Below, piece after piece: positions 3,463 to 64,000 of a stretch of 64,000 nt of DNA. A model generated the notes under the pieces. That model saw only the letters and a list, made by a program, of their open reading frames with translations. It made no database searches and had not been told where the DNA came from. This DNA comes from Lepagella sp. (GTDB taxonomy: Bacteria > Bacteroidota > Bacteroidia > Bacteroidales > Muribaculaceae). The first letter of the stretch is position 1. Every line of letters begins with the position of its first letter. The position numbers were made by a program, and so were the translations under genes. The stretch is taken from positions 47,203-111,202 of the forward strand of contig JBJEKI010000047.1 in assembly GCA_051878555.1 (NCBI GenBank), given 5' to 3'.

Positions 3463-4740
3463 TTATTGTTCGGCTGAGATGTTGTCGTCGCTCAGCACTA
3501 CTTCGGTGACTTTGTTCACCAACGCCGGGTCATAGTCTGCTTCGACTCGGATATAGTTTTCGGTAAAGCCATGCATCTTGCCGGCTCCGTGGGTGGGTTG
3601 CTCCCAGAGCACACGTCCCTTCGTGCCGATATGTCGGCGGAGGAATTGGGCATGTTTCTCCTTGGAGATCTCTATCAGTTCGCCGGCGCGGCGATGTTTC
3701 TCTTCTTGGCTCACTTTGTCGCCAAGGAGGAGTGCCTTGGTGCCGGGGCGCTCGGAGTAGGGGAAGACATGGAGCTGGTTGACTTCGAGGCTGCTGGCAT
3801 ATTCGAGGCTCTTCTTCCACTCTTCGGGAGTCTCACCGCGGGCTCCCGCTATGATGTCGACACCTATGAAGGCATCGGGGATAACCTGGCGTATCCGGGT
3901 GATGCGGTCGCTGAAGAGTGTGGTGTCATATCGCCGATTCATCAATTTAAGCACACGGTCGGATCCTGATTGCAAGGGTATATGGAAGTGGGGCATGAAG
4001 CGCTTCGATTCGCCGGCAATCCATTCGATGATCTCGGGGGTGATGAGGTTGGGCTCGATTGAGGAGATGCGGTAGCGTTCGATACCCTCTACTCGATCCA
4101 AGGCCCTGAGGAGGTCGAAAAACTTCTCGCCGGTGTCGCGGCCGAAGTCGCCGATGTTCACGCCGGTGATCACTATCTCTTTGCCACCCTCGGCGGCTAC
4201 ATCTTCCGCCAATTGGACGATCTCGCTGATCTTGCCGCTGCGCGAGCGCCCTCGCGCGTAGGGTATCGTGCAGTAGGTGCAGTAGTAGTCGCATCCATCT
4301 TGCACTTTCAGAAAGTAGCGTGTGCGGTCGCCTCGCTCGCAGGAGGGCATAAATTCCCGAATCTCCAATGAGGGGGTTACCTCAACTTGGCTGCAACGGG
4401 TCTTCATCCATCTATCCAAGTATTGGACTATGCGCAATTTCTCGTTCGACCCCAACACGATGTCGACACCCGGCAAACTTGCCACTTCGTCAGGCTTAAG
4501 CTGGGCATAGCATCCGGTTACGACTATCGTTGCCTCGGGCGATTGCCGCGAGAGCTTCCGCACAAGCTGACGACCCTTCTTGTCGGCCATCTCCGTTACC
4601 GAACATGTGTTGATCACGATGATATCGGGCTCTTCACCCTCATCGGCGCGGGTGATGCCCCTTGAGGCTAACATCTTGCCGATGGTCGAAGTCTCCGAAA
4701 AATTGAGCTTACACCCCAATGTATAATACGCTGCTTTCAA
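3463..4740 (-). CDS. mtaB: tRNA t6A37 methylthiotransferase MtaB
   Basis: TLGCKLNFSE, NTCSVT and radical-SAM QDGCDYYCTYC motifs plus a TRAM-like end; TTG start. Confidence 0.92.
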   Translation of the reverse strand: MKAAYYTLGCKLNFSETSTIGKMLASRGITRADEGEEPDIIVINTCSVTEMADKKGRQLVRKLSRQSPEATIVVTGCYAQLKPDEVASLPGVDIVLGSNEKLRIVQYLDRWMKTRCSQVEVTPSLEIREFMPSCERGDRTRYFLKVQDGCDYYCTYCTIPYARGRSRSGKISEIVQLAEDVAAEGGKEIVITGVNIGDFGRDTGEKFFDLLRALDRVEGIERYRISSIEPNLITPEIIEWIAGESKRFMPHFHIPLQSGSDRVLKLMNRRYDTTLFSDRITRIRQVIPDAFIGVDIIAGARGETPEEWKKSLEYASSLEVNQLHVFPYSERPGTKALLLGDKVSQEEKHRRAGELIEISKEKHAQFLRRHIGTKGRVLWEQPTHGAGKMHGFTENYIRVEADYDPALVNKVTEVVLSDDNISAEQ

Positions 4741-48198: not shown

Positions 48199-49329
48199 TT
48201 ATCGCTTGCTGACATCTACTCGCTGAGTGGGTGGCTGCATCCTATTGCGCTCTGCCACTGCCCCTATCACGCTGACGGCAAGCCTATCGAAGGCTTGGGC
48301 TTGCAGATCGGCTCCCTCCGGATCTTGTGCCAACTGAAGTGCCACCGGGGCACCATCGTCGGCATGCTCCCGAATATCCATCACCAAGGGTATTTGTGCC
48401 AGCAGACGGATGCCCGTGGTCTCGGCAAGCCTTACTCCGCCACCTTCGCCGAAGATGTAGTAACGCTCGTCAGGGTGTGGCGCCGGCGTGAACCATGCCA
48501 TATTCTCCACCAATCCCAAGATCGGAACATTCACTTTCGGGTCGGTGAACATGGCAATGCCCTTGCGAGCATCGGCAAGTGCCACCTCTTGGGGTGTGCT
48601 CACCACCACGATCCCGGTGATCGCTAAGGTCTGTACCAAGGTCAAGTGGATATCGCTCGTGCCGGGGGGCATGTCGATGATGAAGTAGTCCAAGTCGCCC
48701 CACCAGGCGTCGGAGATAAGTTGCTTCAGAGCGTTGCTCGCCATACCTCCTCGCCATAACACCGGCTTCTCTTTATCCACCACAAATCCTATCGAGAGCA
48801 TCTTTACACCATAGCGCTCCACTGGCTCGATCCAGTCGCGTCCATCCTTATTCACCATATAGAGCTGCTGATCTTCGACCCCAAACATCTTGGGCATCGA
48901 TGGACCGAATATGTCGGCATCAAGCAGCCCGACACGATACCCGCGTGCCGCAAGTCCTACTGCCAAGTTGGCGGCGATCGTAGATTTCCCGACCCCTCCT
49001 TTGCCACTCGATACGCCGATGATGTTCTTAACTCCCGGCAGCAATGTCGCCGGCTTTTCTGCCTGTGGCTTGCGATATTTCACAGCGATGTTTCCCACGA
49101 TCTCCACTTCCGGAGATATGTAGGTGCGGATCGCCGTCTCTGCCGATCTTACCACACTCTTGATGAAGGGATCCGTAGGACGCTCGAAGATCATTGTGAA
49201 AGTGACTTTCGCACCATCGATACGGATGTCATCTTCGATCATCTCATTCTCTACTACACTCTTGCCATTGCCCGGATATTTTACATGTTCCAGAGCCTCT
49301 ATGATAAGTTTGGGATATAGTGTTATCAT
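48199..49329 (-). CDS. mrp: Mrp/NBP35 (ApbC) Fe-S carrier ATPase
   Basis: SGKGGVGKS, DADIFGPS, DMPPGT and ENM motifs. Confidence 0.93.
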   Translation of the reverse strand: MITLYPKLIIEALEHVKYPGNGKSVVENEMIEDDIRIDGAKVTFTMIFERPTDPFIKSVVRSAETAIRTYISPEVEIVGNIAVKYRKPQAEKPATLLPGVKNIIGVSSGKGGVGKSTIAANLAVGLAARGYRVGLLDADIFGPSMPKMFGVEDQQLYMVNKDGRDWIEPVERYGVKMLSIGFVVDKEKPVLWRGGMASNALKQLISDAWWGDLDYFIIDMPPGTSDIHLTLVQTLAITGIVVVSTPQEVALADARKGIAMFTDPKVNVPILGLVENMAWFTPAPHPDERYYIFGEGGGVRLAETTGIRLLAQIPLVMDIREHADDGAPVALQLAQDPEGADLQAQAFDRLAVSVIGAVAERNRMQPPTQRVDVSKR

Positions 49330-49340
49330 GGTCGGATTTT

Positions 49341-50102
49341 TTACTGATTCGATTGGTTATTGGGTATATTGGGGCGAGGGATGGCTCGATAGTCATCGCG
49401 CTCGATGTCATCTTCTTGCGGCTCTTGAAGCCCTTGCTCGCATGTCGGCTTGAAGGAGATCAGTTTGATGCTCTTGCCGCGTGACAGCCATTGCTGCTCG
49501 TAATATGTCTTGATCGATCGCTCCGGATCTGCAAGTCCCGAAGCATACAGGTCGTCGGTGCAGGTCATGACCTCAAAACCATTGACCTCTACCATTCTGC
49601 GAGTGTATTCATAGAGGAAGGGTGAGTCTGTCTTCAGATGGATCACTCCTCCCGGCTTCAAGATGCGACAATACATCTCGATGAAGCGGGTCGAGGTGAG
49701 GCGCTTGCGTGTCTTCTTCATCTGAGGATCGGGAAAGGTAATCCAGATCTCATCCACCTCCGAGGGGGCAAAAAATTGGTCGATGTTCTCGATCTCACAC
49801 CTCAAAAATCGGGCATTGTCGATACCTTCGCACTCCACTTCCGAGGCTCCGGTCCACATCCGAGCTCCCTTGATATCGATGCCGACAAAGTTCTTGTCGA
49901 CATAGCGACGGGCAAGCCCTACCGTGTATTCTCCACGGCCACACCCCAATTCGAGCACTATAGGACTCTCCCGGGGGAATAACTCGCTGTTCCATTTCCC
50001 TTTGTGTGGAAATCCGAGACGCAACAGTTCTTCACGCGGATATTGCAACACGCAGTCATATCGCTCCATGTCTGCAAATTTCTTCAATTTGTTCTTGCCC
50101 AT
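49341..50102 (-). CDS. trmB: tRNA (guanine-N7)-methyltransferase
   Basis: ELGCGRGEY, GIDIKG, FPDPQ and LKTD motifs. Confidence 0.95.
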   Translation of the reverse strand: MGKNKLKKFADMERYDCVLQYPREELLRLGFPHKGKWNSELFPRESPIVLELGCGRGEYTVGLARRYVDKNFVGIDIKGARMWTGASEVECEGIDNARFLRCEIENIDQFFAPSEVDEIWITFPDPQMKKTRKRLTSTRFIEMYCRILKPGGVIHLKTDSPFLYEYTRRMVEVNGFEVMTCTDDLYASGLADPERSIKTYYEQQWLSRGKSIKLISFKPTCEQGLQEPQEDDIERDDYRAIPRPNIPNNQSNQ

Positions 50103-50108
50103 AATATT

Positions 50109-51302
50109 TTAACGTTGCCAGGTATAGTTTTTCTTTCTCGCGGCGCGATGTTCGCATCTGAATAGCAGGTCGACTATCGGTCGCCACATCCAGAAGAGCA
50201 CAACGCCCCACCAGAGTCTGATCATGCCGAATCGCTTGGCGAGACGACGATACATATAGATCTCAAGCCCCCAGAATGTCAGCAGAATTATTGCTGAGAT
50301 GATGGCTGGCACCAGGTTGGGTAGCGATGTTATAGCAGCGGCTATCGCCGCTGCCGGGATGGCCCATTGCATTAACTCCATCAGACCGGAGCGGATGAAG
50401 GGAGCGCGTGGCAACCAGCGCCGGGTGAAGCTGTAGCGCGCTTTGCGGATCTCCCACACCTTGTTGGTAGAGTTCCCCAAAGAGTCTTTCCATACGCTCT
50501 CGATGATATCTTCGTCGCTTACGGTCACCATCGTGTTCGAGCCGTTGGCAATCTCGTTTATGAATATGTCGTCGTCGCCATTGTGGAGGTAGATGCTCTG
50601 CGCATATCCTTTGTGGTCGTAGAAGACGCTCTTGCGGAACGCCAGGTTGTAGCCATCTCCTCGATAGGGCTTACGGGCGGCGGCATATCCCACCCAGAGG
50701 GCATTGGAGAGAAGTTCGTCGAATTGACGATACCAGCGCCCCGGGCCCTTCATGTCGCCTATGCTCAGACGAGACACTCCGAGCGACACATCATAGTGAC
50801 GACCCTGCTCCCCGCAGAAGGGGCGCATCAGACGACTAAGCCATCTGTCGGAGGGTATACGTATGTTGGCCGCCGTGGTGACTATGATCTCTCCCTTCGA
50901 GGCTTTTACCCCGATGGTAATCGTCAGCTTGCTGCGACTCAGATTGTGTGACCCCGGCTGGATGAAGGTGAAGTAGACGTTGTCATAGACCCCCGAGTAT
51001 CGCTCGGTTAGCATCTCCGCCTGATCCCACGAGCCGTCGCAGATCACGATGATCTCAAAGTCGGGATAGTCTTGATGTGACAGTGCTTCAAGCGTCGTGG
51101 CTAAATGCTCATCTTCCGCTTTGCTATATACCAAGACTGATGCTTTGGGGGTATGACCGTTTCCCCCGATTATCGGTTCAAGTGTGCTCATTCGATAGGC
51201 ATCCCTATATGGCTTCATACCATAGAAGTATGCCAACAGCACCAAAGTCGCGCATAGCACCATCAGCACTATTGCGAGATTTGTAATTGTCAACGAAAAC
51301 AT
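50109..51302 (-). CDS. Membrane-anchored GT2-like protein with degenerate DxD
   Basis: QDYPDFEIIVICDGS, NLAFRK and GDDD motifs; TAAN at the usual TDAD position. Confidence 0.8.
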   Translation of the reverse strand: MFSLTITNLAIVLMVLCATLVLLAYFYGMKPYRDAYRMSTLEPIIGGNGHTPKASVLVYSKAEDEHLATTLEALSHQDYPDFEIIVICDGSWDQAEMLTERYSGVYDNVYFTFIQPGSHNLSRSKLTITIGVKASKGEIIVTTAANIRIPSDRWLSRLMRPFCGEQGRHYDVSLGVSRLSIGDMKGPGRWYRQFDELLSNALWVGYAAARKPYRGDGYNLAFRKSVFYDHKGYAQSIYLHNGDDDIFINEIANGSNTMVTVSDEDIIESVWKDSLGNSTNKVWEIRKARYSFTRRWLPRAPFIRSGLMELMQWAIPAAAIAAAITSLPNLVPAIISAIILLTFWGLEIYMYRRLAKRFGMIRLWWGVVLFWMWRPIVDLLFRCEHRAARKKNYTWQR

Positions 51303-51320
51303 CTTATTAAGGAATACGCT

Positions 51321-51992
51321 CTAAAATTTCTTACCCCCTACGATCCCTCGGAATGTGCGCCATAGTATCGACATATCTTGCGCTAATGACCCATGTTGCA
51401 GGTAGTAGAGGTCGTAGTAGAGGCGGGTCAACATCTTTTCAAGTGTGTCAGTATAACCGTTATAGAGTGTCGCAAATGAGGTCACTCCCGGGCGTATCTG
51501 ATAGAGATAGCGATAGCGACTGTCTGCCTCCATGATTTTCTCTATGAAATATTCTCGCTCCGGACGCGGACCGATGAACGACATATCTCCCTTGAAGACA
51601 TTAAGCAGTTGCGGCAATTCGTCAAGATGATGTGCTCGCAAGAATTTCCCGATCTTGGTCAGACGTCTGTCTTCGCCAGTGGTGGCGTCGAACAGTTGCG
51701 GGCCGTCTTTCTCCGCATCCATGCGCATCGACCTGAATTTCAATATGTAGAACTTCTTGCCTTTATAGCCTATGCGCTCCTGACGATAGATCGCCGAACC
51801 TCCATCCTCTCGCCTCACGGCTATGTGACACGCTATGTAAAGCGGCGAAAAGATGATAATCAATATCCCGGAAAACAAGAAATCGAACGCTCTCTTGATA
51901 AAGCGCTCTATCTTGTTCATGCCATTTTTTATTTCCTTGCCGTCGTCAATCGGCGACACCTTATATTTTTCTAATTCTATATTGCTCTCCAT
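51321..51992 (-). CDS. Bacterial sugar transferase (priming phosphoglycosyltransferase)
   Basis: KRAFD, KFRSM, LDELPQL, GDMSFIGPRPE and YDLYY motifs; start uncertain (TTG 52019 possible). Confidence 0.92.
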   Translation of the reverse strand: MESNIELEKYKVSPIDDGKEIKNGMNKIERFIKRAFDFLFSGILIIIFSPLYIACHIAVRREDGGSAIYRQERIGYKGKKFYILKFRSMRMDAEKDGPQLFDATTGEDRRLTKIGKFLRAHHLDELPQLLNVFKGDMSFIGPRPEREYFIEKIMEADSRYRYLYQIRPGVTSFATLYNGYTDTLEKMLTRLYYDLYYLQHGSLAQDMSILWRTFRGIVGGKKF

Positions 51993-52180
51993 TAGGGTTT
52001 TATGTATTGCAATCAGCATCTTTGCGCAACGCTGTATTCATGTAATACAATGCTTCGTTTCTATCGAAACTTTTGCATCTGCAAATATACAAAAAAAGAA
52101 TGATAATCAGACCCTCTGATTATCACTTTTTTTCTTTTTTTCGCTTTATCCCTCTTTTCCCCGCTAAAATCTTTCACCTT

Positions 52181-52906
52181 CTATCGGTTGAAAAGACACC
52201 TTGCTATCAAGCATTTTACATAGTGAAGGCGTGTCTTGATGCGATAGGTAAGTGGATTATTGCTCTTGCCATAACTCGAAATATTTCCTTGATGGCGGCG
52301 ATAGTATACTAATCTGTCGGGAATTATAATATATTTATATTTTATCGATCCTAAGAATCCAAGCCATCGATCGTGAGATTGAAGCCCGACGGGGAAGGGT
52401 AGCGCCTTGTCTAGTAGACGTCTGCTCACCGCCGCACAGCACCCCTTGTAGGGAGCGATGAAAAATAGAGATTTCCATCTGTTGCTATGTGTCGGCGCCG
52501 GGTCGATTGCTTCGTTGTCTACTCTCAAATCTTTGTCAGTGAAGATGCATTTGCATTGCACATAGTCGTAGTCTTTGAGATAACCCATCATCACTTCCAC
52601 CTTGTTGCTCGCCCAGGCATCATCTTGATCCGATAGAAAGATGTAGTCTCCCTTGGCGTGGCGTAGAGCATTCTCAAAGTTGTAGGTCACTTTTTGCACC
52701 GGCTGAAAATCTCGTGTGTCCCTTTCGTTGGTGTAGATCCGGATGCGAGGATCATTGTATCCCCGGAGTATTTCCAATGTCCGATCGGTCGAATGATCAT
52801 CGGATATGACTATCTCATCCTCTTCACTTAGCTGTGAGAGAATCGAGTCTATTTGCTCGGCTATATAGGCCTCGCCGTTGTATGTAGCTATACACACCGA
52901 TATCAT
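52181..52906 (-). CDS. Glycosyltransferase family 2
   Basis: SVCIATYNG, SDDHSTD and LSDQDD motifs; start trimmed because a -7 box lies at 52928-52935. Confidence 0.9.
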   Translation of the reverse strand: MISVCIATYNGEAYIAEQIDSILSQLSEEDEIVISDDHSTDRTLEILRGYNDPRIRIYTNERDTRDFQPVQKVTYNFENALRHAKGDYIFLSDQDDAWASNKVEVMMGYLKDYDYVQCKCIFTDKDLRVDNEAIDPAPTHSNRWKSLFFIAPYKGCCAAVSRRLLDKALPFPVGLQSHDRWLGFLGSIKYKYIIIPDRLVYYRRHQGNISSYGKSNNPLTYRIKTRLHYVKCLIARCLFNR

Positions 52907-53123
52907 TCGTTTTTGCTTTACCGACTGCAAAGGTAAGAATTATTATCCACATAGCAAAATTTATAACTCTCTATTATTTTTCCTATCTTTTTATGTCCGG
53001 TTTTTGCTGTTTTGACTCTTTTTTTGTCTTTTTTTATATTGTTTAATACAACTTTATAACATCTCGGGCGTTCTATCTTTGATAGAGTTTTTCTATTTTA
53101 CGCAATTTTTTAATTCGTCGTGT

Positions 53124-54644
53124 ATGAATTTCACACCTTTAGCAGCCCCTTTCTTCAGACGGAGGGCATGTCGTGTGGATAATTGGGCATCTGATAGCGA
53201 GCCTATACAGATCGCTCAGTTGAAAAGCCTGTTGAAGCGTGTCGCTCCGACCGAGTTTGGCCGCAGATTCGGGCTCGATGAGTTGTGTGCCCTCTCCGAC
53301 CCTTACGATCGTTTCGCCGACAGGGTGCCTACTTGTCTCTATGAGGATATCCGCGATGATGTGTTGCGTATGATTCAGGGTGCCCCCGATGTCTTGTGGC
53401 CCGGTGTATGCCGCGATTTCGCACAATCTTCCGGCACTTCGGGCGGCAGATCCAAGTTTATACCCATCACTCATGACAGTCTCTATCGCTGTCATTATCC
53501 CGGCGCCGCCGATTGCGTGGCCCATTACCTCCGTGCCAACCCCAAGTCGCGGATTTTCTCCGCTAAGTCGTTCGTGCTCGGCGGTTCTTTCGCCAATCAA
53601 CTCAACATCACCGACCCGAATATTCATATCGGCGACCTTAGCGCTACGCTCATCAGCCGAATTAACCCTCTCGCCAATCTATTCCGCCTCCCCGACAAGA
53701 GGACGGCGCTACTCCCTAATTGGCAGGATAAACTCCCCGCGCTGGTCCGTGCTTCTGCATACGCCGATATCTCCAATATCTCGGGTGTCCCTTCTTGGTT
53801 CCTGTCGGTCATCAAGGAAGTGATGGCTCTCAGAGGCGTAGATAAGATATCTGACGTTTGGCCAAATCTTGAAGTGTTCTTCCATGGTGGCATCTCTTTC
53901 GAACCTTATCGTGAGATCTATCGTTCGATCACTGACCCCCGGAAGATGCATTTCGTCGATACATATAATGCTTCGGAGGGATTCTTCGCCATCCAAAATA
54001 ATATGAAGGACCCCTCGATGCTGCTTATCATCGACAATGATATTTTCTATGAGTTTATCGATATAGCCGATCCTAATGCCACCCCCGTGCCTATGTGGAA
54101 GGTGAAGAGAGATCATGTATATGAGTTGCTGATATCTTCGAGCAATGGCTTGTGGCGCTATCATCTCGGCGACACGGTGAGAGTTGTCTCCATCGCTCCT
54201 GTCAAGATAGTAGTGGCAGGACGAACCAAAACTTTCATCAATGCTTTCGGCGAGGAGCTGATGGAGAATAATGCCGAGCAGGCGATAGCTGCCGCTTGCC
54301 GTCGTTGCAATGCTTCTATTTCCAATTACACCGCCGCTCCGGTCTACGCCACTCAGCAGAATCGTGGTTTCCACCAGTGGCTCATCGAGTGGGATGTTGA
54401 ACCCGATAGTATCGATAAGTTCGCTAAGATCCTCGATGAAGAACTCCGTCGTGTAAATTCCGATTATGATGCCAAGAGAGCTCACACCATATTTCTGGAT
54501 CCTCCGCAAGTGGTGTCGCTCCCGGCCGGATCCTTCAATCGTTGGCTCGCTTCTGTCGGCACCGGTAAGTTGGGCGGACAGCGTAAGGTGCCACGTCTCA
54601 GCAATAATCGCACTATCGCCGATGAAATCCTGAAGCTCTTATAA
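53124..54644 (+). CDS. GH3 auxin-responsive-family (acyl-acid amido synthetase-like) protein
   Basis: AQSSGTS..SKFIP, YNASEGFF, LWRYHLGDTV and LGGQRKVPRL motifs. Confidence 0.9.
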   Translation: MNFTPLAAPFFRRRACRVDNWASDSEPIQIAQLKSLLKRVAPTEFGRRFGLDELCALSDPYDRFADRVPTCLYEDIRDDVLRMIQGAPDVLWPGVCRDFAQSSGTSGGRSKFIPITHDSLYRCHYPGAADCVAHYLRANPKSRIFSAKSFVLGGSFANQLNITDPNIHIGDLSATLISRINPLANLFRLPDKRTALLPNWQDKLPALVRASAYADISNISGVPSWFLSVIKEVMALRGVDKISDVWPNLEVFFHGGISFEPYREIYRSITDPRKMHFVDTYNASEGFFAIQNNMKDPSMLLIIDNDIFYEFIDIADPNATPVPMWKVKRDHVYELLISSSNGLWRYHLGDTVRVVSIAPVKIVVAGRTKTFINAFGEELMENNAEQAIAAACRRCNASISNYTAAPVYATQQNRGFHQWLIEWDVEPDSIDKFAKILDEELRRVNSDYDAKRAHTIFLDPPQVVSLPAGSFNRWLASVGTGKLGGQRKVPRLSNNRTIADEILKLL

Positions 54645-54675
54645 AATATAAAAACGCGCTCATCGAGCGCGCTCT

Positions 54676-55602
54676 CTATACTGTGCCCATCAGAACTTTA
54701 AGCCGATAGAAGAAGTCCGATTCTCGTCGACTATACCCGATCTCTCGGTCCATCAGCAGCTGAATCCTTGATTTCATACTCTTGCGATATTCGCAAAATC
54801 TCTCTATCAGTGCTCTCCCCTCCTGGTCGAGCTCATCGCCACAATCCCTCAAAAAAGCTCGGTTCTGCTTCTCAAGGGTATGCTCTTTATATCTCTGTTT
54901 CAATAGCCGAGTCTTCATCCTCCCCCAGAAGGGTTGGCTCCCTATCTGATTACCCCCATGTTGACGGTAGAGGATTCTTGATTCTTTGTCCCAGATGAAG
55001 CATCCGGCGAAGAGTGCTATCTGATACATCCGGAAGTCGTGAACCTTCAGTCCGGTGCGGTAGGTGCGGTCGTAGATCTCGGCTGCCACCCGATTGAAGA
55101 GCATGGTGCAGCCGGTGGCAAAGTTCTCTACCAGCCCGCGACTTCGCGTTATCTCGATGTCGCCACATTGCCATCTCAGTCCGATCTCTTTCAGATCGGA
55201 GTCTACCAGCATCGTGTTCGAGGCGTAGGCTATCGGCCGCCCTGTATATTCCGGCTCTTTTCGCTCGATGGCCTTGACTCCTCGCTCCAATTTGTCGCTC
55301 AGCCATACATCGTCTTGGTCGGCAAAGGAGAAGATCTCGGCGTCCGGATAGCGGCTCAGACCCTCTTTGATAAGTCGACTGAATGAGGCTGCAAATCCTA
55401 TGTTCTTGTCTTCGATCACTTCGATACGCCCAGACTCTTCCTCTTGCCATCTCCCCAAGAGGGCAAGGGTGCCATCGCTCGATCCGTCGTCTCTAATCAG
55501 CAACTTCACGTCGACACCCTGCTGATCCATTATGCTCCGGATCTGAGCGTCGAGATATTTCTCGCCGTTGTAGGTCGACATCAGTGTGACTACTTTCCTC
55601 AT
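54676..55602 (-). CDS. Glycosyltransferase family 2 (rhamnosyltransferase-like)
   Basis: LMSTYNGEKY, RDDGSSD, FADQDDVW, GCTM and HD motifs. Confidence 0.9.
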   Translation of the reverse strand: MRKVVTLMSTYNGEKYLDAQIRSIMDQQGVDVKLLIRDDGSSDGTLALLGRWQEEESGRIEVIEDKNIGFAASFSRLIKEGLSRYPDAEIFSFADQDDVWLSDKLERGVKAIERKEPEYTGRPIAYASNTMLVDSDLKEIGLRWQCGDIEITRSRGLVENFATGCTMLFNRVAAEIYDRTYRTGLKVHDFRMYQIALFAGCFIWDKESRILYRQHGGNQIGSQPFWGRMKTRLLKQRYKEHTLEKQNRAFLRDCGDELDQEGRALIERFCEYRKSMKSRIQLLMDREIGYSRRESDFFYRLKVLMGTV

Positions 55603-55617
55603 AGTATAAAGTCGCGA

Positions 55618-57066
55618 TTATCTGAGTTTCAGCACTTTCACTACGCCGCCGGAAACAATCCTTACCACCACCGGATTGGCCGCGTCGATGCCCTCTACGC
55701 TTACATCTTTCCCGACATTGCGGCTCTGATATAGGGTCGTGCCGTTCAGACCGAAGATCTCGACGGTTTCGATATCCTCGCTCGAGGTGATAGTCACGCT
55801 GTCGCCGGCTCTCCGGGCATTGATCTTAACTTCGCCTAGAAGTGTCTCTTTTATTCCTGTGTCGTAGGAGCCCACCTCGAAGAGTCCCCACACCGGGTGG
55901 GCTGACCAGATCGCTTCGGTGTCTTTGGTTACGTTGAGCTTGATGGCATATCTTCCCTCTTCATTCTCAAGCCCGGAGAAGGAGGTGGCATCGACTGTCG
56001 GTGGAGTGTCTATCTTTCTTACCACATCGACCAGAGTGAGTGATGTCAGATTTCTGAATGCGTTGACACCGATGCTGTTGACGTTAGCGCCGAGTGTCAG
56101 CGTAGTAACATTAGGGCTGTCGGCGTAGGCAGCTTCACCGATCGTAGGCTGGTTGATCGTCAGATCGCCGGCCTTCTGACTGTTGGCTACCATCAGCGCC
56201 GGGATGTCTCCGGTGAAGGTGGGTAACTGTAGAAGTTGGGGGTCGTTGAAGAAGACGCCCATATCCATCGTGACATATTGCGTCTGGCTTAAGGTCACTG
56301 AATTCAGAGAAGCCATGTCGGCAAATGCGAATCTTCCGATATTCTCCACCGCTGTGAGGTTGAGCTCCTCTGCCGCTGTGCCTCGATAGGCTTTGGCTCC
56401 GACTGTGGTAACACTCGAGGGGATGACTGCCGAGTATTTGCTACACCCCTCGAACATGCTCTCCGGGATGCTCGTGATGCCATACTTGAACTCTACTCCG
56501 GTCAGTGATACGCACTCTTTGAAGATGCCCTTATCTAATGTGGCATCTGCCGAGAGCACCACTCTCTGCAATGAACGACAGCGACTGAACGCTCCGGTAG
56601 CGATCTTGCTGACTGTGGCGGGTATTTCCACTTCGGTGAGCTCGGAGTCGGCGAATGCCCCTTGGCCGATGATCTTGATCTCTTGCGGAAATATGATCTT
56701 GGTGATGCTCGATCCCATCAGCATGAAGGGGGGGATCTCGTCGGCGGCAAAGTCGGTGAGCCCTAAGTAGTCGCCATCGCTATAGGTATATGATACGATC
56801 TTCAACCCCGACATGTCGAGAGTCTTGACGTTGCGACTCATCTCCTTGAGGAGCACCAGGTCGGTGACGTTAGCACTCCCGGTGAGCACTACCATCTCGT
56901 CGGTGCTGTTCTTCAGCTTGGGCCATTGCTCGCTCAGGGTCCCGGGGGTAAGCTCGACACTCAGTCCCATGGAGGTGGAGGCGTAGAGCATTATAAGCCC
57001 TATCGTTAGCAGTATTTGCAGGGAGTTCTTCCTTTCTCCGCGGTTGGTTGCGTTGTTTCGTATCAT
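55618..57066 (-). CDS. BspA-type leucine-rich-repeat surface protein with T9SS C-terminal domain
   Basis: Signal peptide; TpLRR repeats (IGQGAF, IATGAF, IPESMF, IGVNAF); C-terminal ...VEIFGLNG...KVLKLR. Confidence 0.85.
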   Translation of the reverse strand: MIRNNATNRGERKNSLQILLTIGLIMLYASTSMGLSVELTPGTLSEQWPKLKNSTDEMVVLTGSANVTDLVLLKEMSRNVKTLDMSGLKIVSYTYSDGDYLGLTDFAADEIPPFMLMGSSITKIIFPQEIKIIGQGAFADSELTEVEIPATVSKIATGAFSRCRSLQRVVLSADATLDKGIFKECVSLTGVEFKYGITSIPESMFEGCSKYSAVIPSSVTTVGAKAYRGTAAEELNLTAVENIGRFAFADMASLNSVTLSQTQYVTMDMGVFFNDPQLLQLPTFTGDIPALMVANSQKAGDLTINQPTIGEAAYADSPNVTTLTLGANVNSIGVNAFRNLTSLTLVDVVRKIDTPPTVDATSFSGLENEEGRYAIKLNVTKDTEAIWSAHPVWGLFEVGSYDTGIKETLLGEVKINARRAGDSVTITSSEDIETVEIFGLNGTTLYQSRNVGKDVSVEGIDAANPVVVRIVSGGVVKVLKLR

Positions 57067-57135
57067 ATTTTTGCTGTTTATTGACGCGTAAATTTAGCAA
57101 TTTTTTTTGATTTATGACCTGTTATCGCCATTTTC

Positions 57136-60100
57136 TTAGTTTACGACTACGATTTTGGCGGTCTTGTTATAGCTGTCTTCTTGAGGTCCGTTGGAGGCTA
57201 TTACGGTGTAGACGCCGGAGGGAACTCGCTTGCAGAACATATTGGTTACATCCCATCGAGCCACGCCATTGACAGCCTGGCCACATTCTTTGATCAGGTT
57301 GCCGCCGATATCCACGATTTTCACCATGGCTTGGTCGCTGAGTCCTTCGATGGTGACATAGCCGAAGTAGTCGGGTCTCACCGGATTGGGATAGCATTTC
57401 AGGTCGCTGCCGGTGTCGCCGGTGCCCCCTCCCGGGATGAAATATTCGCAGAGTCCCTTGTCGGTCGAAATCATCAGCGAGCCGGATGCCGGGTTGTAGC
57501 ATACGGCGAATACCGAACTGCCCGGCAGAGGCGAGTTGTCGGGGGTGAAGGTGGAGATAATCTCGCGCCCGTCGGAAGAGGTGCAGACAAGCCCGGCGCC
57601 GTTGGTGCCAAACCATTTACGCCCCGAGGCGTCGGTGGCTATGCTGTTGACGGTGACTCCCGACAGCAGGTAGTCGGCAAGTCCCGTACCGTCGTTGCGT
57701 GGCACTTTGATGCGGCGTACGGAGGTCGGATCGTCAAAGATCTCTTGAGGATCGAAGGTGAAGAGCCCATCTCCATAACTTATCCATACCAACCCTGTGT
57801 TGACATCTTCATACCAGTCGATTACATAGTAGAAGTCCAGTTTATTGCCATCCTGATCGTAGAGATTTTTCATCTGGGCGGTGCGGTCGTCAGAGCGGTT
57901 GTCGATAGTGCCGTTATGATCCCAGATCAGGATCGGGGTAGTGGTCGTGTTGCCGCAGTGCATCACGATGTTCTTGTTCTTAGAGCCGTGGAGCGCCCTG
58001 ACTTTTGGGGTATTTCCGGTGAGCAAGTTGTCAAATTTAAATTGTTTCCAGCCATGCACATTGCTCGCCGTGGTGCTGGCGGCTCTGTCGGCTGCCGACC
58101 ACATCCAGAGCTCGGTATAACTACTCACCTCGACTCCAGGCTCCGGGTTGACAAAGGCTGTCCAGAGATTGCCCGAGTTGTCAAACGATGGGGCGGCAAA
58201 TACACACTGCTCTTTCCAGGTGCCGTCAGGATTGTCGGGCACAATCACGGCAAATCCTTCTTTGCCATTGCCCCCCAGCATATCTGAGGGCATCGACATG
58301 TGGATGGATTTGGTCGGATCTTTCAAGTCAAGTCGCAATAAGCCTGAACGCTCCGATCCGCAGTAGACATGGTCAGCATTGTTCGGGTCGATCGAGATAC
58401 CGAAGGGGCTGTCGATCAGTAGCCCTTGCATGTCGGTACGATAGGTCGTCGACAGGGGTGTCCAGGTCATATCTTTATAGCCGGAAATCAGGTCGTTGGT
58501 CAGAATCATACGCGATGAAAAGATGTATTCAAAACCATGGTTGCGCACCAGCATACCGTAGGTCGGACTATATTCCATATATGAGCAGTGGAACGCCGTC
58601 GAGGTGTTGGGGAAAAATTGCTGTGTCAGCATGGTCCATTCCCCACCCTGCTCCGGCAGTCGCAGCGAGCAGATTCCATCGCGCTGTGTAGAGACCCAGA
58701 GTGTCTTGCCGTCGATGCTCCCTATGTTGGAGAAGTAATAGTCTTTGGGAAGTGTCGTCGCCTGTAATTTGCCGCTCTCATCGATGCTTACGATCTGCCA
58801 GTTATACACCAACAGCATGCCGCTTCGACTCCTTGAGAGGAAGACCACTCCCGGATCATATATCGGATTTGATATGTATGTGCCGGTGCTGTCATCGACT
58901 CTGCCGGGTGTCTTGTTGCCGCGTGCCCCATACAGGAAGTAGAGCCGGTCGTTCGTGATATTGAGCGATTCAACTCCGACCTCCGATGATATTTGCTGAT
59001 ATTTCTCAAAGTCAAATTCTTTGGGCTCGCCGCAATAGAGGCCGTCGTCGGTGGCTATCCAAATTTTGTCGTGATAGGGCATCACACTGTTGACTTTGCG
59101 GTTGAACACTCGCGAGGTGGATACCTCGTTGATAGAGGCATCTATCACTACATAGCCGAAGTTGGTGGCAAGATAGACATAACGTCCTGTCTCGTCGAAG
59201 GTTATGTCGTTAACTCCCTTATTGAGCGATGAATCAGCTACCTTCAGCCCGGTGATGGTGGTGACATTATCATCTTTGTCGATGATGTCGATGTTGCCAT
59301 CTTCGTGTGCCACAACCAAATAGTTCTTGTCATAGTTGTAGCTGATACAGATGGCGTTGCTGCCGGATAAGATGTTGGAACTGTTGAGGTATTCGATGGC
59401 TCCATCCTCCTTGTCATAGCGGAAGAGAATCCCGTAGAAGGTGGAGGCGTTGACATTCGAGGGATTGTATTCCTGCCGGGTGCCGAGGAAATAAACGAAC
59501 GATGGGGTGTCTACTATGCGATGCATATAGCCATCGTAGGAGGCATGTAGTCGCCACTGTGAGTCGTCAGCGCGGGCTGTCATCCCGACCAAGAAGATGA
59601 TGAGCAGGGTGAGTATCCCGGCGAGATAGTCACGCAGCTTGCGCATCGCTCTGCCCCGATGGGAGATGGCATCTTTCTCCTCTCCGCTCATCTCGGCAAA
59701 GCATTTGCCCCTCTCTGCCGCTATGAAAATCGGATCGTAGCCGAAGCCGCCATCGCCATGGGGTTCGGTGGCTATGCTTCCCTCTACTCTCCCCTCGAAG
59801 ATGTGCACTTCTCCATCCAAGGATAGCGCTATCGCCGTCGAAAAGTGTGCCCCGCGATCCTCTTTACCCTCCATCTCACGAAGCAGCTTGGCCACATTCT
59901 CCGCCGGTGTGCAGGGATCTCCCGCATAGCGCGCACTGTATACACCGGGAGCTCCATCCAAGGCATCTACCATCAGCCCCGTGTCGTCCGCAAAACAGTC
60001 ATAGCCATAGCGATCGCGGACCCAACGTGCCTTGATCAGGGCATTCCCCTCAAGCGTCTCTGCCGTCTCCGGTATCTCGTCGTGACAGCCGATATCTGAA

Positions 60101-60198
60101 AGTGACAAGATCTCAAACTCATCAGAGATGATTCGCTTTGCCTCTTCCAGCTTGTGCATATTGTTGGTGGCAAATACAAGCTTCTTATCTTTTTTCAT
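57136..60198 (-). CDS. rdgB-porZ: In-frame fusion: RdgB/HAM1 XTP/dITP pyrophosphatase (aa ~1-192) + signal-like segment + PorZ-like T9SS beta-propeller protein
   Basis: RdgB motifs FATNNMHK, ETLEGNALIK, FADDTGL, PGVYSARY, GFGYDPIF and SHRGRA; then MRKLRDYLAGILTLLIIFLVGMTARA; then propeller repeats, YLLSGVTVNSIATDASGRKWFGT and CTD YPNPVRP...SGVY...KIVVV. No stop in 1020 codons. Confidence 0.88.
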   Translation of the reverse strand: MKKDKKLVFATNNMHKLEEAKRIISDEFEILSLSDIGCHDEIPETAETLEGNALIKARWVRDRYGYDCFADDTGLMVDALDGAPGVYSARYAGDPCTPAENVAKLLREMEGKEDRGAHFSTAIALSLDGEVHIFEGRVEGSIATEPHGDGGFGYDPIFIAAERGKCFAEMSGEEKDAISHRGRAMRKLRDYLAGILTLLIIFLVGMTARADDSQWRLHASYDGYMHRIVDTPSFVYFLGTRQEYNPSNVNASTFYGILFRYDKEDGAIEYLNSSNILSGSNAICISYNYDKNYLVVAHEDGNIDIIDKDDNVTTITGLKVADSSLNKGVNDITFDETGRYVYLATNFGYVVIDASINEVSTSRVFNRKVNSVMPYHDKIWIATDDGLYCGEPKEFDFEKYQQISSEVGVESLNITNDRLYFLYGARGNKTPGRVDDSTGTYISNPIYDPGVVFLSRSRSGMLLVYNWQIVSIDESGKLQATTLPKDYYFSNIGSIDGKTLWVSTQRDGICSLRLPEQGGEWTMLTQQFFPNTSTAFHCSYMEYSPTYGMLVRNHGFEYIFSSRMILTNDLISGYKDMTWTPLSTTYRTDMQGLLIDSPFGISIDPNNADHVYCGSERSGLLRLDLKDPTKSIHMSMPSDMLGGNGKEGFAVIVPDNPDGTWKEQCVFAAPSFDNSGNLWTAFVNPEPGVEVSSYTELWMWSAADRAASTTASNVHGWKQFKFDNLLTGNTPKVRALHGSKNKNIVMHCGNTTTTPILIWDHNGTIDNRSDDRTAQMKNLYDQDGNKLDFYYVIDWYEDVNTGLVWISYGDGLFTFDPQEIFDDPTSVRRIKVPRNDGTGLADYLLSGVTVNSIATDASGRKWFGTNGAGLVCTSSDGREIISTFTPDNSPLPGSSVFAVCYNPASGSLMISTDKGLCEYFIPGGGTGDTGSDLKCYPNPVRPDYFGYVTIEGLSDQAMVKIVDIGGNLIKECGQAVNGVARWDVTNMFCKRVPSGVYTVIASNGPQEDSYNKTAKIVVVN

Positions 60199-60244
60199 TC
60201 TGTTTTCTCCTTCTTTTTTCTGGTTCTTCCGTTTGAACGCGCTC

Positions 60245-61333
60245 TTACATCGCCGTGCCTGACAACAATTCGATCGTGATCGGCACACGCAGTAAACATA
60301 ATATTATGGAGACTATCATCAGAGGATAGTAGTATTTCTTGCTCGCTAAGGGCAACATCGCAAAGGCAAAGATGTCGAATGTGCCAAACAATTCTCCAAG
60401 TCGGGCTCGCATCACAGGGATGTCGACAAAGAGCAGATAACATAGTTGCGATATGATATAGAATCCCAACACCGGCACTGCCAGAGGATAGTGTCGCTTG
60501 ATCTCTTTGAGATTGAAGAGTAGGAATATCGCCACGAATGCCATCACCGCACTCTGTATACCCAGCTTCGAGGCTACATAGTCGCGATTGCCCATATACG
60601 ACCTTACGTAGGCATCAATAAAGTCTACAGGAATGAATTTCGCTACGTAGCCGAAAGCATTGTTGGTGTATCCCATCACCAACGCTGCTAAGATTATGCC
60701 GCTCCATACCCATTTGTTCAAATCCTTGTAGGGCACAAAGTAGAGCGGCAGAAAGAGTGCCATCGACTTGTGAAACCAAAATGCGACACCCACCAACAGC
60801 ATGTAGGGCCATATCTTACGCTCCGTGATGAATCGCACCGCATACAAGATAATACCCAAACCGATGGCTACACGCATCTGGATCATATCGTGCAACACAA
60901 AGTAGTAGGAGAGATAGACCACTAATGAGAGCCAAATATTCGGCGAGTTCTTGAAGATGCCGATGATATGACCACCCACAGACAATGTCGCATATACTCC
61001 CAACAAGAACAAGAACGTCGGCGATATCTTCACCATTGTGACGAACGACGCCTCTATGTCTTGCCGCAGATTCTCACCTCCTCCCATCCGGTAGAGGTTC
61101 TCATACATCTGATAGTCTGCAAGCTCGTCCGATCGAAATATACACATTACGATCAGCCCGACTGCTATCAGCCCGGCGCCTATAAACACCGGCTGCCGAT
61201 GCCCCTTCTTCCATCGAGCCAGGGCATCATATCTCTCTTGGCTCTCGTCGTGACTGTAGACCACCTTCAGTGAACTTAATGGTAACGTCAAGAGCAATAT
61301 CGTTGCGGCTAACGCCAGATAGATTATCTCCAT
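60245..61333 (-). CDS. EpsG-family polysaccharide polymerase (Wzy-like)
   Basis: Multi-TM; FRS...DY..Y, QMRVAIG and WFHKS motifs; start trimmed to ATG 61333. Confidence 0.8.
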   Translation of the reverse strand: MEIIYLALAATILLLTLPLSSLKVVYSHDESQERYDALARWKKGHRQPVFIGAGLIAVGLIVMCIFRSDELADYQMYENLYRMGGGENLRQDIEASFVTMVKISPTFLFLLGVYATLSVGGHIIGIFKNSPNIWLSLVVYLSYYFVLHDMIQMRVAIGLGIILYAVRFITERKIWPYMLLVGVAFWFHKSMALFLPLYFVPYKDLNKWVWSGIILAALVMGYTNNAFGYVAKFIPVDFIDAYVRSYMGNRDYVASKLGIQSAVMAFVAIFLLFNLKEIKRHYPLAVPVLGFYIISQLCYLLFVDIPVMRARLGELFGTFDIFAFAMLPLASKKYYYPLMIVSIILCLLRVPITIELLSGTAM

Positions 61334-61482
61334 GTCTTTCCTTTCATATAGTGCACTTTTTTCGCTATTGCGCATACTTAGCACTATCTTTTCTAACGTC
61401 ACAGATAGTCTATTTATTATCTTTTATACACTTTATTATTATCTATTGTGTGCTTTGTTCGGTGTTTTTTCTATTTTTTTAT

Positions 61483-61490
61483 TATATTTG
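61483..61490 (+). promoter_or_regulatory. -7 box TATATTTG for leuS
   Basis: TAnnTTTG ~80 nt before the ATG. Confidence 0.6.
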
Positions 61491-61567
61491 CAGTTTGGGA
61501 AATCATTGTGACTTTCCTAACCCCCATTTTCCCCTATCAGATTATTTTCTTGTTTTTATATATTCAA

Positions 61568-64000
61568 ATGGAATACAACCACCAGGAAATCGAAAAGCGC
61601 TGGCAAGAGTTTTGGCGCTGCAACCATGTCTATGAGGTTCATGAGGATCCCTCTCGTCCTAAGTTCTATGTGCTCGATATGTTCCCCTATCCCTCGGGAG
61701 CAGGTCTGCATGTCGGTCATCCCCTTGGCTATATAGCAAGCGATATTTATGCTCGCTTTAAGCGCCAACAGGGGTTTAACGTGCTTCATCCGATGGGCTA
61801 TGACGCTTACGGCCTCCCCGCTGAGCAGTATGCCATCCAGACCGGTCAACACCCCGAGAAGACTACTGTCGAGAATATCAACCGCTATCGTGAGCAACTC
61901 GATAAGATCGGCTTTTCGTTCGATTGGAGCCGCGAGGTTCGCACTTGCGATCCCAAGTATTATCGATGGACTCAGTGGGCGTTTATGCAGATGTTCAATT
62001 CTTATTATGATCTTGACCTTAACAAGGCTATGCCGATCGACCGCCTCGTCGAGCATTTCGCCAAGTCGGGATCTGAGGGCGTGAATGCCGCCTGCGGCAA
62101 GACTCTCTCTTTCTCCGCCGAGGAGTGGAATGCCCTCTCCGAGGCTCAGCAACGTGAACGCTTGATGAATTATCGCATCGCTTATCAAGGCGAAACTATG
62201 GTGAATTGGTGCCCAAAACTCGGCACAGTCCTCGCCAATGATGAGGTGAGCGAGGGCCTCAGCGTCCGCGGCGGTTTCCCCGTAGAGCAGAAGGTTATGA
62301 ATCAGTGGTGCCTCCGTGTGTCGGCTTACGCCCCTCGTCTGCTCGATGACCTCGACTCTCTCCAATGGAGCGATTCGCTCAAGGAGACCCAACGTAATTG
62401 GATCGGTCGCTCCGAAGGTGCCGAAATGAAGTTTAAAGTCGCTGACTCGGATGTAGTCCTCGATATCTTCACCACTCGCGCTGATACCATCTTCGGAGTT
62501 ACTTTTATGGTGCTCGCCCCGGAGTCGAAATATGTCGATCTTCTCACCACTCCCGACCGTCGGAAGGAGGTACAGGCTTATCTCGAAGAGGTGAAGCATA
62601 AGACCGAACGTGAACGCCAGATCGAGAAGAAGGTATCGGGCGTATTCACCGGCAGCTATGCCGTCAATCCCCTCACCGGAAAGCAGATCCCCGTATGGGT
62701 TAGCGATTATGTCCTCGCCGGTTATGGCACCGGTGCCATCATGGCGGTGCCGGCTCACGATTCCCGTGACTATGCCTTCGCTCGCCATTTCGACCTCCCC
62801 ATCATCCCTCTGATCGAGGGCGCCGATGTCTCCGAACAAAGCTTCGATGCAAAGGAAGGGCGTATGATCAATTCACAAAGCGAGGACCTCAACCTCAATG
62901 GCCTTGAAGTCAAGGAGGCTATCGCGCGCACCAAAAAGTATATCGAAGAGAAGGGCCTCGGCAAGGTGAAGGTGAATTATCGCCTCCGTGATGCCATCTT
63001 CTCTCGCCAAAGATATTGGGGCGAACCTTTCCCCATATATTATAAGGAGGGTACTCCCTATCTGATCGATGAGTCGCAACTCCCACTCCATCTCCCCCAG
63101 GTGTCAAGTTATCTCCCCACCGAGGATGGCCAGCCTCCTCTGGCTCGCGCCAAGGATTGGACGACACCCGACGGATTCCCCCTCGAACTCTGCACAATGC
63201 CCGGTTTCGCCGGTTCGTCGGCTTATTACCTCCGATATATGGATCCTCACAATGATATGGCTCTCGTCAGCCCCGAGGCTAACCAATATTGGAGAAATGT
63301 CGACCTTTATGTCGGCGGCGCCGAACATGCCACAGGCCATTTGATTTATTCCCGATTCTGGAATAAGTTCCTCTTCGACCTCGGTGTCGTCGCCGAGCCG
63401 GAACCCTTCAAGAAGCTCGTAAACCAGGGTATGATCCAGGGGTGTAGCAGTTTCGTGTATCGTGTCAAAGGATCCAACACTTTCGTGAGCCATGGCCTCC
63501 GCAAGGAGTATGACACCGCCCCCATCCGCGTAGACATCTCGATGGTGTCGAACAATGTCCTCGACACTGAGAAGTTCAAAGCGTGGAGACCCGATTTCGC
63601 CAATGCCGAGTTTATACTCGAGGATGGTAAGTATATCTGCGGGTCGGCTGTCGAGAAGATGTCGAAGTCGATGTTCAATGTCGTCAACCCCGATGATATC
63701 GTCGAGAAGTATGGCGCCGATACTCTCCGCCTCTATGAGATGTTCCTCGGCCCGGTCGAGCAGTCAAAGCCTTGGGACACCAACGGCATCGATGGCGTCA
63801 ACCGCTTCATCAAGAAGCTCTGGGGATTCTTCGATAAGGTCGACCTCAATTCGGATGCCGAAATGTCCAAGGAGGAGAGCAAGGCTATCAATAAGCTGAT
63901 CAAGAAGGTGACTTCCGACATCGAGGCTTTCTCTTACAATACCTCCGTCTCAGCCTTTATGATAGCTCTGAATGAGTTGTCTCAACTCAAGTCGACAAGT
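61568..64000 (+). CDS. leuS: Leucine--tRNA ligase (partial, runs off the window)
   Basis: Manual translation: [13 protein letters not shown]...[14 protein letters not shown] (HIGH motif), KMSKS near 63657-63671; missing from the ORF track because there is no stop in the window. Confidence 0.97.

Follow-up and report, generated by a model that had tools for sequence, protein, structure and literature searches.

A few known polyproteins are divided into separate products at a signal sequence that lies within the chain. The cytochrome b/c1 polyprotein FbcH of Bradyrhizobium japonicum, reportedly described by Thony-Meyer et al. in 1991, is said to yield two proteins from one bacterial open reading frame (ORF) when signal peptidase cuts at an internal signal peptide, the two belonging to one complex and the upstream part being a polytopic membrane protein. 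At the capsid-envelope junction of flaviviruses and hepaciviruses, which depends on the eukaryotic endoplasmic reticulum machinery, an internal signal comes after a cytosolic N-terminal protein and is cut by signal peptidase on the far side, and the upstream protein stays tail-anchored until a second, intramembrane cleavage. A further natural bacterial protein with an internal export signal is the Streptomyces Rieske protein, whose internal twin-arginine translocation (Tat) signal peptide drives translocation of the C-terminal domain (PMC13186574). Here we analyze a gene in a 64,000-nucleotide stretch of a Lepagella sp. genome (phylum Bacteroidota, family Muribaculaceae; contig JBJEKI010000047.1, positions 47,203 to 111,202; hereafter the window, in whose own numbering positions are given). 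In a layout like that of FbcH, this one ORF encodes two complete modules, an RdgB/HAM1 pyrophosphatase and PorZ, a type IX secretion system (T9SS) component, with a signal-peptide-like stretch and its signal peptidase site between them.

The processing that we propose for this product would resemble that of the polyproteins named above, with clear differences. As in FbcH, one bacterial ORF is predicted to give two proteins through signal peptidase, but the upstream part here is a soluble cytoplasmic enzyme without a known link to PorZ. The order of a cytosolic protein and an internal signal is shared with the viral junction, whereas a second cleavage that would free RdgB is conjecture in the bacterial case. 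The Rieske protein in turn differs in using Tat instead of the general secretory (Sec) pathway, in remaining uncleaved and in having a membrane-embedded upstream part. The searchable literature on PorZ with HAM1, Muribaculaceae or fusion yielded no description of an RdgB-PorZ fusion, and next to nothing turned up on bacterial internal signal peptides or FbcH. The best-known PorZ, that of Porphyromonas gingivalis (PG1604/PGN_0509), has a cleavable signal peptide (M1-A25), is exported by the T9SS to the cell surface with its C-terminal sorting domain (CTD) intact, and delivers anionic lipopolysaccharide (A-LPS) to PorU (PMC5121618, PMC8545088); surface location, A-LPS binding and partnership with PorQ, PorU and PorV are known for this PorZ only (PMC8545088, PMC5121618).

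The fused gene occupies 57136-60198 on the minus strand and comprises 1020 codons, coordinates that were checked by translation. Its open frame spans 57136..60288, and the ATG at 60198, chosen as the start, agrees with the N-termini of all homologs; the protein begins MKKDKKLVFATNN and runs through a complete RdgB/HAM1 (residues 1-192), the segment AGILTLLIIFLVGMTARA, the predicted cut point, the residues DD and a full PorZ with its probable CTD. An initial annotation of the window had proposed a single in-frame fusion of 1020 codons, with a complete RdgB and a PorZ double propeller; translation and domain profiles bear out the fusion, and both modules were correctly recognized, but its wide spread and multiple origins were overlooked. 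In the protein collection, at least 120 matching clusters of 1000-1040 amino acids were found, with 40-92% identity and 100% query coverage, all of which carry PF01725 and PF21544; the few that are named, from Muribaculaceae or Bacteroidales metagenome-assembled genomes (MAGs), are called only ‘RdgB/HAM1 family pyrophosphatase’. The locus of the window is 96-97% identical to the MAGs HGM05248 and ‘Lepagella sp.’ FUKU04_bin.012.

The fusion is genuine and vertically maintained. When one genome per species was scanned with a PorZ-only alignment, 80 loci were recovered, nearly all from Muribaculaceae: 32 have a single RdgB-PorZ ORF, 41 have rdgB directly upstream of a separate porZ, and at 7, 2 of them truncated, rdgB was not found upstream, so that the fused form accounts for 32 of the 73 classifiable species-level loci. 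The initial annotation would have counted its proposal as refuted had only this assembly been fused; the 32 species loci together with the at least 120 clusters show that this is not so. Contigs encoding one fused protein (P0121) occur in 132 collection blocks and include a closed 3.25-Mb contig. Pig-gut metagenome contigs of strains ~91% identical to that of the window span 59000-60400 with zero indels within the gene, an assembled metatranscriptome contig of a ~91%-identical pig-gut strain spans 59000-59934, and in another fused species (L010) four runs have identical sequence over the junction. Both halves of the gene are under strong purifying selection.

By profile, motif and fold, the N-terminal half is a member of the HAM1 family, and hydrolysis of the inosine and xanthosine triphosphates ITP, XTP and dITP is predicted for it. 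Pfam Ham1p_like (PF01725) is matched over its full length (profile 1-186 of 186; residues 7-191; E 1.7e-66; 224 bits, cutoff 22.5), NCBIfam RdgB PRK14823 at residues 5-193 (273.2 bits, cutoff 272) and TIGR00042 with 187 bits against a cutoff of 145. Sequence searches of the PDB matched residues 5-196 to the RdgB structures 6wwd, 4bnq and 1k7k. An AlphaFold2 model of the fused protein was built on 64 homologs (mean predicted local distance difference test score, pLDDT, 86.7), and its RdgB half was aligned by Foldseek to 4bnq, 3tqu, 2pyu and 1k7k with target-normalized template-modeling (TM) scores of 0.84-0.91 and root-mean-square deviations of 1.7-2.0 Å. The motifs TNN..K (N-terminal), E44, K56, DDTGL, GxPGxxSAR, FGYDP and SHR, whose catalytic or substrate-binding role we take from what is established for Escherichia coli RdgB, are invariant columns in the 64 fused homologs, and the enzyme has therefore been kept. 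The fused RdgB thus shares the full-length domain, the fold and the motif residues with E. coli RdgB/HAM1 (YggV; PDB 1k7k, 2pyu), and the C-terminal helix with the stand-alone RdgB of sister species. Unlike the E. coli enzyme, however, it has no stop after the terminal helix, which continues into a hydrophobic segment and an 810-residue protein predicted to be secreted; because of this continuity, the fused RdgB is predicted to be a membrane-targeted precursor.

The second half is an ordinary member of the PorZ family save for the N-terminal signal peptide. The NCBIfam equivalog T9SS_PorZ (NF052228) matches residues 200-1020 with 376.9 bits against a cutoff of 260 (profile 11-757 of 757), Pfam PorZ_N_b_propeller matches residues 256-391, and a phmmer search of the PDB matches residues 256-1001 to P. 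gingivalis PorZ (5m11; E 1.5e-34), which is also the first-ranked Foldseek hit of the fused-protein model (E 1e-45; target-normalized TM 0.83). Pfam Por_Secre_tail gives a weak match at residues 936-1007 (E 0.0037; 17.9 bits, below the cutoff of 27); the match to the PorZ profile, however, extends to the final profile position, and residues 934-1018 form a seven-strand beta-sandwich in the model. Two beta-propellers and a probable CTD are shared with P. gingivalis PorZ, but identity is only ~21%, A-LPS binding is known for the P. gingivalis protein only, and the signal peptide sits behind a 192-residue cytoplasmic enzyme: the 1020-residue product has no N-terminal Sec signal peptide for its PorZ half, the signal-like segment coming after the complete RdgB. 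Among other members of the collection, six distant PorZ-like proteins of 1355-1549 residues (P0285, P0286, P0295, P0303, P0304 and P0317), in which the PorZ match begins at about residue 640, carry an uncharacterized N-terminal extension that differs from RdgB.

Comparison with the separate-gene loci indicates what was lost when the two genes were joined. At the 41 separate pairs, rdgB and porZ are ~1-35 nt apart across an A/T-rich gap; RdgB ends in ...SHRGRAMRKLADFL followed by 0-8 residues, and porZ opens with M(K/R)(K/R), an h-region, AxA, the cut and then (E/Q)QWRLHP(S/T)(Y/F)DG. One third of these pairs share a frame, which matches chance expectation. At five loci that are separate-gene sisters of the fused clade containing the window (L013-L016 and L025; locus positions ~3900-4000), porZ lacks an ATG, and its start seems to be the TTG of TTG AAA CGA ATA, a few nucleotides past the rdgB stop. 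Stand-alone pairs such as those of isolate-036 (L012), Lepagella muris (L041), L018 and L045 share with the fused genes the gene order, the orthologs and the mature (E/Q)QWRLH; they differ in having a stop, the 1-35-nt A/T-rich spacer, an ATG or TTG of their own and an MKK-type n-region, and it is exactly the rdgB stop, the spacer and the porZ start with its n-region that are missing from the fused genes. The fusion originated by an in-frame deletion in an ancestral rdgB-porZ pair that removed these elements, whereupon the basic terminal helix of RdgB assumed the role of the n-region.

Such a deletion appears to have happened more than once. When mature PorZ sequences (803 columns, 100 bootstrap replicates) were arranged by neighbor joining, the fused clade that contains the window (clade A) has 98% support and groups with its separate-gene sisters at 97%, while a second fused clade of 19 loci (clade B) has 100% support and is sister to two separate-gene loci (83%). 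None of the 100 bootstraps recovered all fused genes as monophyletic, and Fitch parsimony on 233 sequences gave a separate root state and four fusion gains; a single fusion origin was therefore rejected. The short RdgB-only tree left clade A without resolution, recovered clade B at 97% and never joined A with B. Two additional fused lineages (P0064/66/68 and P0065), whose DNA has clean in-frame junctions, are placed, with 84-99% support, among separate genes, and in no case join clade A. We conclude from these trees that at least two well-supported fusions, and probably four in all, have taken place. All fused lineages have the same junction design, the RdgB helix followed by the h-region, and no reversion was seen within the two large fused clades. 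A junction of a third kind was observed in P0087 (1104 aa), where a 26-residue linker, MIEQSAIELRNKPGNPDSSITSTLKNSLK, stands between the RdgB helix and the h-region; it looks like a spacer that is read through, another route to fusion.

In the window, the junction reads SHRGRAMRKLRDYL, then AGILTLLIIFLVGMTARA, then the cut point, predicted after A210, and then DDSQWRL, the mature N-terminus DDSQWRLH beginning at 59568. The segment at residues 185-210, with the n-region RGRAMRKLRDYL, the h-region AGILTLLIIFLVGMT and the c-region ARA before D, fits the rules for type I signals: a positive n-region, an h-region of ~10-20 residues and small residues at -3/-1. In the fused genes, one small residue links the RdgB helix to the PorZ h-region. 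Because separate porZ genes have a matching h-region, AxA and mature start, the fused h- and c-regions are homologous to a working N-terminal signal peptide. Net charge in the 10 residues ahead of the h-region is +3.5 in fused proteins vs +1.9 in stand-alone PorZ signals. Ala stands at -1 in 86 of 88 clade-A-type fused proteins and in 27 of 36 separate genes, and Ala or Ser in all 33 clade-B proteins (33/33), so that conservation of the signal peptidase site is at least equal in fused and separate genes, while the residues of the h-region drift freely in the fused proteins. The initial annotation had assigned a double role to the last RdgB helix, as n-region of a signal ending in an A-x-A site, and this proposal is sustained by the separate-gene relatives and by the conserved -1 residue. 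In the AlphaFold2 model, one helix (180-205) leads from RdgB into the hydrophobic segment, residues 206-212 have pLDDT <50 and leave the cleavage region modeled as an exposed linker, and the propeller begins with a strand at 215. A lipoprotein (signal peptidase II) reading of the Cys-rich h-regions of clade B was ruled out, as no lipobox precedes a Cys.

We consider it probable that the gene product is a polyprotein which signal peptidase I cuts at its internal signal peptide; this is the simplest reading that fits all lineages and the most likely one. Translation would begin at the rdgB ATG (60198), and the RdgB domain would fold in the cytoplasm. The hydrophobic segment 193-207, behind the basic RdgB helix, would then act as an internal Sec signal in an N-in orientation, and the PorZ part of ~810 residues would be translocated through Sec. 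Signal peptidase I would cut after ARA210 and release mature PorZ (DDSQW...; new N-terminus DDSQWRLHASYDGYMHR) into the periplasm, from which it would be exported by the T9SS through its CTD. RdgB (~23 kDa) would be left on the inner face of the membrane with an 18-residue hydrophobic tail, either tethered there or later freed by proteases that degrade signal peptides. A full-length precursor is made in any case, because RdgB lacks a stop codon. Between the two mechanisms offered in the initial annotation, an internal cleavable signal and a second start at Met185, the former is favored and the latter less so, as this ancestral residue is Leu or Phe in 37 of 87 fused proteins.

Several points weigh against processing of a polyprotein. 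The signal peptide was assigned by homology and simple rules. Proteins cut naturally by signal peptidase at a signal behind a folded 190-residue domain are, to our knowledge, rare in bacteria, and that the Sec and signal recognition particle machinery of Bacteroidota handles the fused precursor is something that we infer. Met185 of the window gene is followed by a textbook signal peptide, as had been noted initially, with a canonical n-h-c layout; the TTG starts of porZ in sister lineages mean that non-AUG internal initiation would be possible even where no Met is present; and the junction ATG of clade B is invariant (52/52) and could be a retained porZ start.

The last three of these points also favor a gene with two starts, in which PorZ would come mainly from internal initiation at Met185 (59646) behind an ordinary signal, MRKLRDYLAG...ARA, then DD, and the full-length product would merely yield RdgB, its PorZ part being wasted or degraded. 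A Met at this position in 11 of 13 clade-A loci and in 50 of 87 clade-A-type fused proteins (the others having Leu, 23, or Phe, 14) agrees with such a gene, and a porZ that in sister lineages initiates at a weak TTG 1-35 nt past rdgB speaks for flexible initiation. We nevertheless regard a second start as unlikely. Met is no better conserved in the fused genes than in stand-alone RdgBs (26/40), and in 27 of the 87 fused proteins no Met is placed so that a signal peptide of 14 or more residues could begin with it, so PorZ could be made there only from the fusion or from a non-AUG start. The surroundings of the junction ATGs also differ from those of true starts (p ~1e-5 to 1e-8): A+T in the preceding 21 nt is 0.29, vs 0.67 ahead of rdgB, 0.68 ahead of separate porZ genes and 0.49 ahead of background in-frame ATGs. 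This makes them the most GC-rich class measured and confirms the GC-rich stretch that the initial annotation had seen upstream of Met185. No A-rich initiation context was found at the junction ATGs, whose GC content is above that of background ATGs, and the synonymous positions upstream vary freely without A enrichment. A scan for the Bacteroidetes -7 motif TAnnTTTG inside rdgB found no conserved site (clade A 0/13, clade B 3/19), which rules out an internal promoter as a conserved feature. Even with two starts, moreover, a fusion without an rdgB stop would still be produced in full length.

Clade B (L026-L055, L070; P0088-P0120) has a junction of its own, SHRGRA-x-x-(A/S)-ATG-(ATG/GTG/CTG)-A.., in which a TGA is always present in the +1 frame. 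The first ATG there may be the start codon of porZ, retained from an ancestral overlap of start and stop (ATGA); alternatively, it may be a structural helix residue, the position being Leu, Phe or Met in other RdgBs. As to a programmed frameshift that would end RdgB, only this +1-frame TGA was found at the clade-B junction, and no slippery site.

Most simply, the fusion looks like a way of expressing two neighboring genes that repeated loss of the spacer has produced and that is tolerated, or mildly favored, since the tail of RdgB is able to serve as n-region. A short deletion within a 1-35-nt spacer is an easy mutation. Junction designs converge because both proteins would stay functional only where a junction keeps the whole helix and sets its basic residues directly before the h-region. 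Once fixed, a fused allele persists, as its reversal requires a stop, a start and an n-region, all of them new. The fusion could conceivably bring a mild advantage in that porZ would be freed from weak re-initiation, such as that at the TTG of sister lineages. A stronger, adaptive view, which we think doubtful, would have RdgB made as the ‘n-region’ so that signal peptidase I yields a tail-anchored RdgB and a T9SS component at 1:1. If true, such a biogenesis route would be one so far undescribed in bacteria, and four or more convergent origins with the same junction would speak of selection, the possible benefit being a bypass of weak, Shine-Dalgarno-less porZ re-initiation or the placing of RdgB at the membrane.

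We hold it less likely still that the fusion adaptively links the activity or location of RdgB to T9SS biogenesis, e.g. through a tethered RdgB near the machinery or a 1:1 stoichiometry. The adjacency of rdgB and porZ is conserved over Muribaculaceae and in Candidatus Limisoma, and the fusion, its junction alike each time, came about at least 2-4 times and persisted through deep divergence without reversion in the two large fused clades; but recurrence and persistence are equally expected of a near-neutral deletion that is hard to reverse, and ITP/XTP hydrolysis and A-LPS delivery have no known biochemical link. Most PorZ relatives, moreover, are stand-alone proteins of ~815-845 aa, matched from residue 22-30, and only three fused-size clusters are found among the best 150 PorZ relatives at 50% clustering. 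In P. gingivalis, the one reported flanking gene of porZ, PG1605/PGN_0508, encodes a PepC-like peptidase and not RdgB, and rdgB as the neighbor was discarded for that flank. At five loci of Muribaculaceae or Bacteroidales (L068, L069, L071-L073), porZ has a normal N-terminal signal peptide, then GQWRLHNT, and no rdgB lies within 4 kb upstream; the gene pair is therefore not universal. We found no evidence of a biochemical link between the two halves, and the coupling of nucleotide sanitation to T9SS biogenesis suggested in the initial annotation is unsupported, the two genes being neighbors with a tiny spacer family-wide.

Cleavage of the polyprotein has also to be weighed against a permanent signal-anchor, with RdgB inside and a PorZ-like periplasmic domain still joined to it, the role of PorZ having changed. 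Single-span proteins of N-in topology with a large C-terminal periplasmic domain are common in bacteria, the long model helix would suit such an anchor, and, compared with stand-alone PorZ, clade A has h-regions of slightly greater length and hydrophobicity (mean Kyte-Doolittle value in a 17-residue window, 2.31 vs 1.97; p 4e-4). Against this, the A-x-A is nearly invariant and keeps a constant distance to the mature N-terminus, itself conserved, the apparently retained T9SS CTD makes sense only for a protein that leaves the inner membrane, and the h-regions of clade B are no longer than those of ordinary signal peptides; we consider an uncleaved bitopic protein highly improbable. That a lost stop merges two genes in this assembly only, as an artifact or pseudogene, has a negligible probability: no support for it was found, an artifact or frameshift is ruled out by conservation across hundreds of independent assemblies together with the contigs of other samples that run through the junction without indels, and the selection on both halves speaks against a decaying gene.

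Table 1. Features of the fused gene and its surroundings, in window positions
Feature	Position	Strand	Basis or remark
Whole fused gene rdgB-porZ	57136..60198	minus	1020 codons + stop (57136-57138); homologs 1000-1040 aa, 100% coverage
A-rich 46-nt spacer from the EpsG gene stop to the rdgB ATG	60199..60244	minus	Likely region where translation of the fused gene starts
RdgB/HAM1 non-canonical purine NTP pyrophosphatase domain, residues 1-192, complete	59623..60198	minus	Pfam, NCBIfam, PDB and fold matches
RdgB terminal helix SHRGRAMRKLRDYL, residues 179-192, doubling as positive n-region	59623..59664	minus	Sister RdgB ends, AlphaFold2 helix, charge
Met185 codon ATG, candidate internal start, ancestral RdgB residue	59644..59646	minus	Residue counts in relatives; GC-rich upstream
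Internal signal peptide h-/c-regions AGILTLLIIFLVGMTARA, residues 193-210, predicted signal peptidase I site ARA, then DD	59569..59622	minus	Positional homology to stand-alone PorZ signals
Mature PorZ, residues 211-1020, two beta-propellers + C-terminal domain	57139..59568	minus	NCBIfam equivalog, PDB 5m11
Probable T9SS C-terminal sorting domain, ~residues 934-1020, last residues KIVVVN	57139..57399	minus	Weak Pfam match, PorZ profile end, model
EpsG-family protein	60245-61402	minus	Neighbor of the fused gene
GT2 glycosyltransferase	54676-55602	minus	Neighborhood
GT2 glycosyltransferase	52181-52930	minus	Neighborhood
Bac_transf initiating sugar transferase	51321-52019	minus	Neighborhood
Weak GT2 match	50109-51302	minus	Neighborhood
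482-aa BspA-type LRR_5 protein	55618-57066	minus	Signal peptide; T9SS-CTD-like C-terminus
427-aa ORF with TTG start	61556-62839	minus	No family match; antisense to a long plus-strand ORF
ORF running off the window end	~61570-64000	plus	Likely leuS

The fused gene lies in a glycan-biosynthesis neighborhood (48199-62000, minus strand; Table 1), past whose glycan genes a TrmB-like methyltransferase and an Mrp/NUBPL ATPase are encoded. This neighborhood is suggestive because P. gingivalis PorZ binds A-LPS; the glycan genes are not conserved beside the fusion at other loci. Directly downstream of the fused gene is that for the BspA-type LRR_5 protein, a probable T9SS cargo, and the same LRR_5 gene also follows rdgB-porZ in L081-L086, forming a conserved rdgB-porZ-LRR_5 block. 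The ORF with a TTG start at 61556-62839 is most likely a shadow ORF and no gene.

The fused gene provides a natural case for asking whether bacteria use and cut an internal signal peptide. Its arrangement already bears on how genomes of this family are read: annotation pipelines call the 1020-aa fused proteins only ‘RdgB/HAM1’ and hide PorZ, signal-peptide predictors that consider only the N-terminus will score the fused PorZ as cytoplasmic, and T9SS inventories will wrongly list PorZ as missing in Muribaculaceae with the fusion. If PorZ were instead made by internal initiation, these genes would offer a clean natural example of a start nested in coding sequence rich in GC, from a phylum whose initiation does not have a Shine-Dalgarno basis. 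If the polyprotein reading is true, a sizeable group of common gut commensals would export an essential T9SS component by means of a signal that lies 190 residues into the chain, behind a folded enzyme, and a naturally tail-anchored RdgB would be predicted. Sec targeting and signal peptidase I of Bacteroidota would then tolerate large N-terminal passengers, and evolution would have arrived at the internal-signal solution repeatedly.

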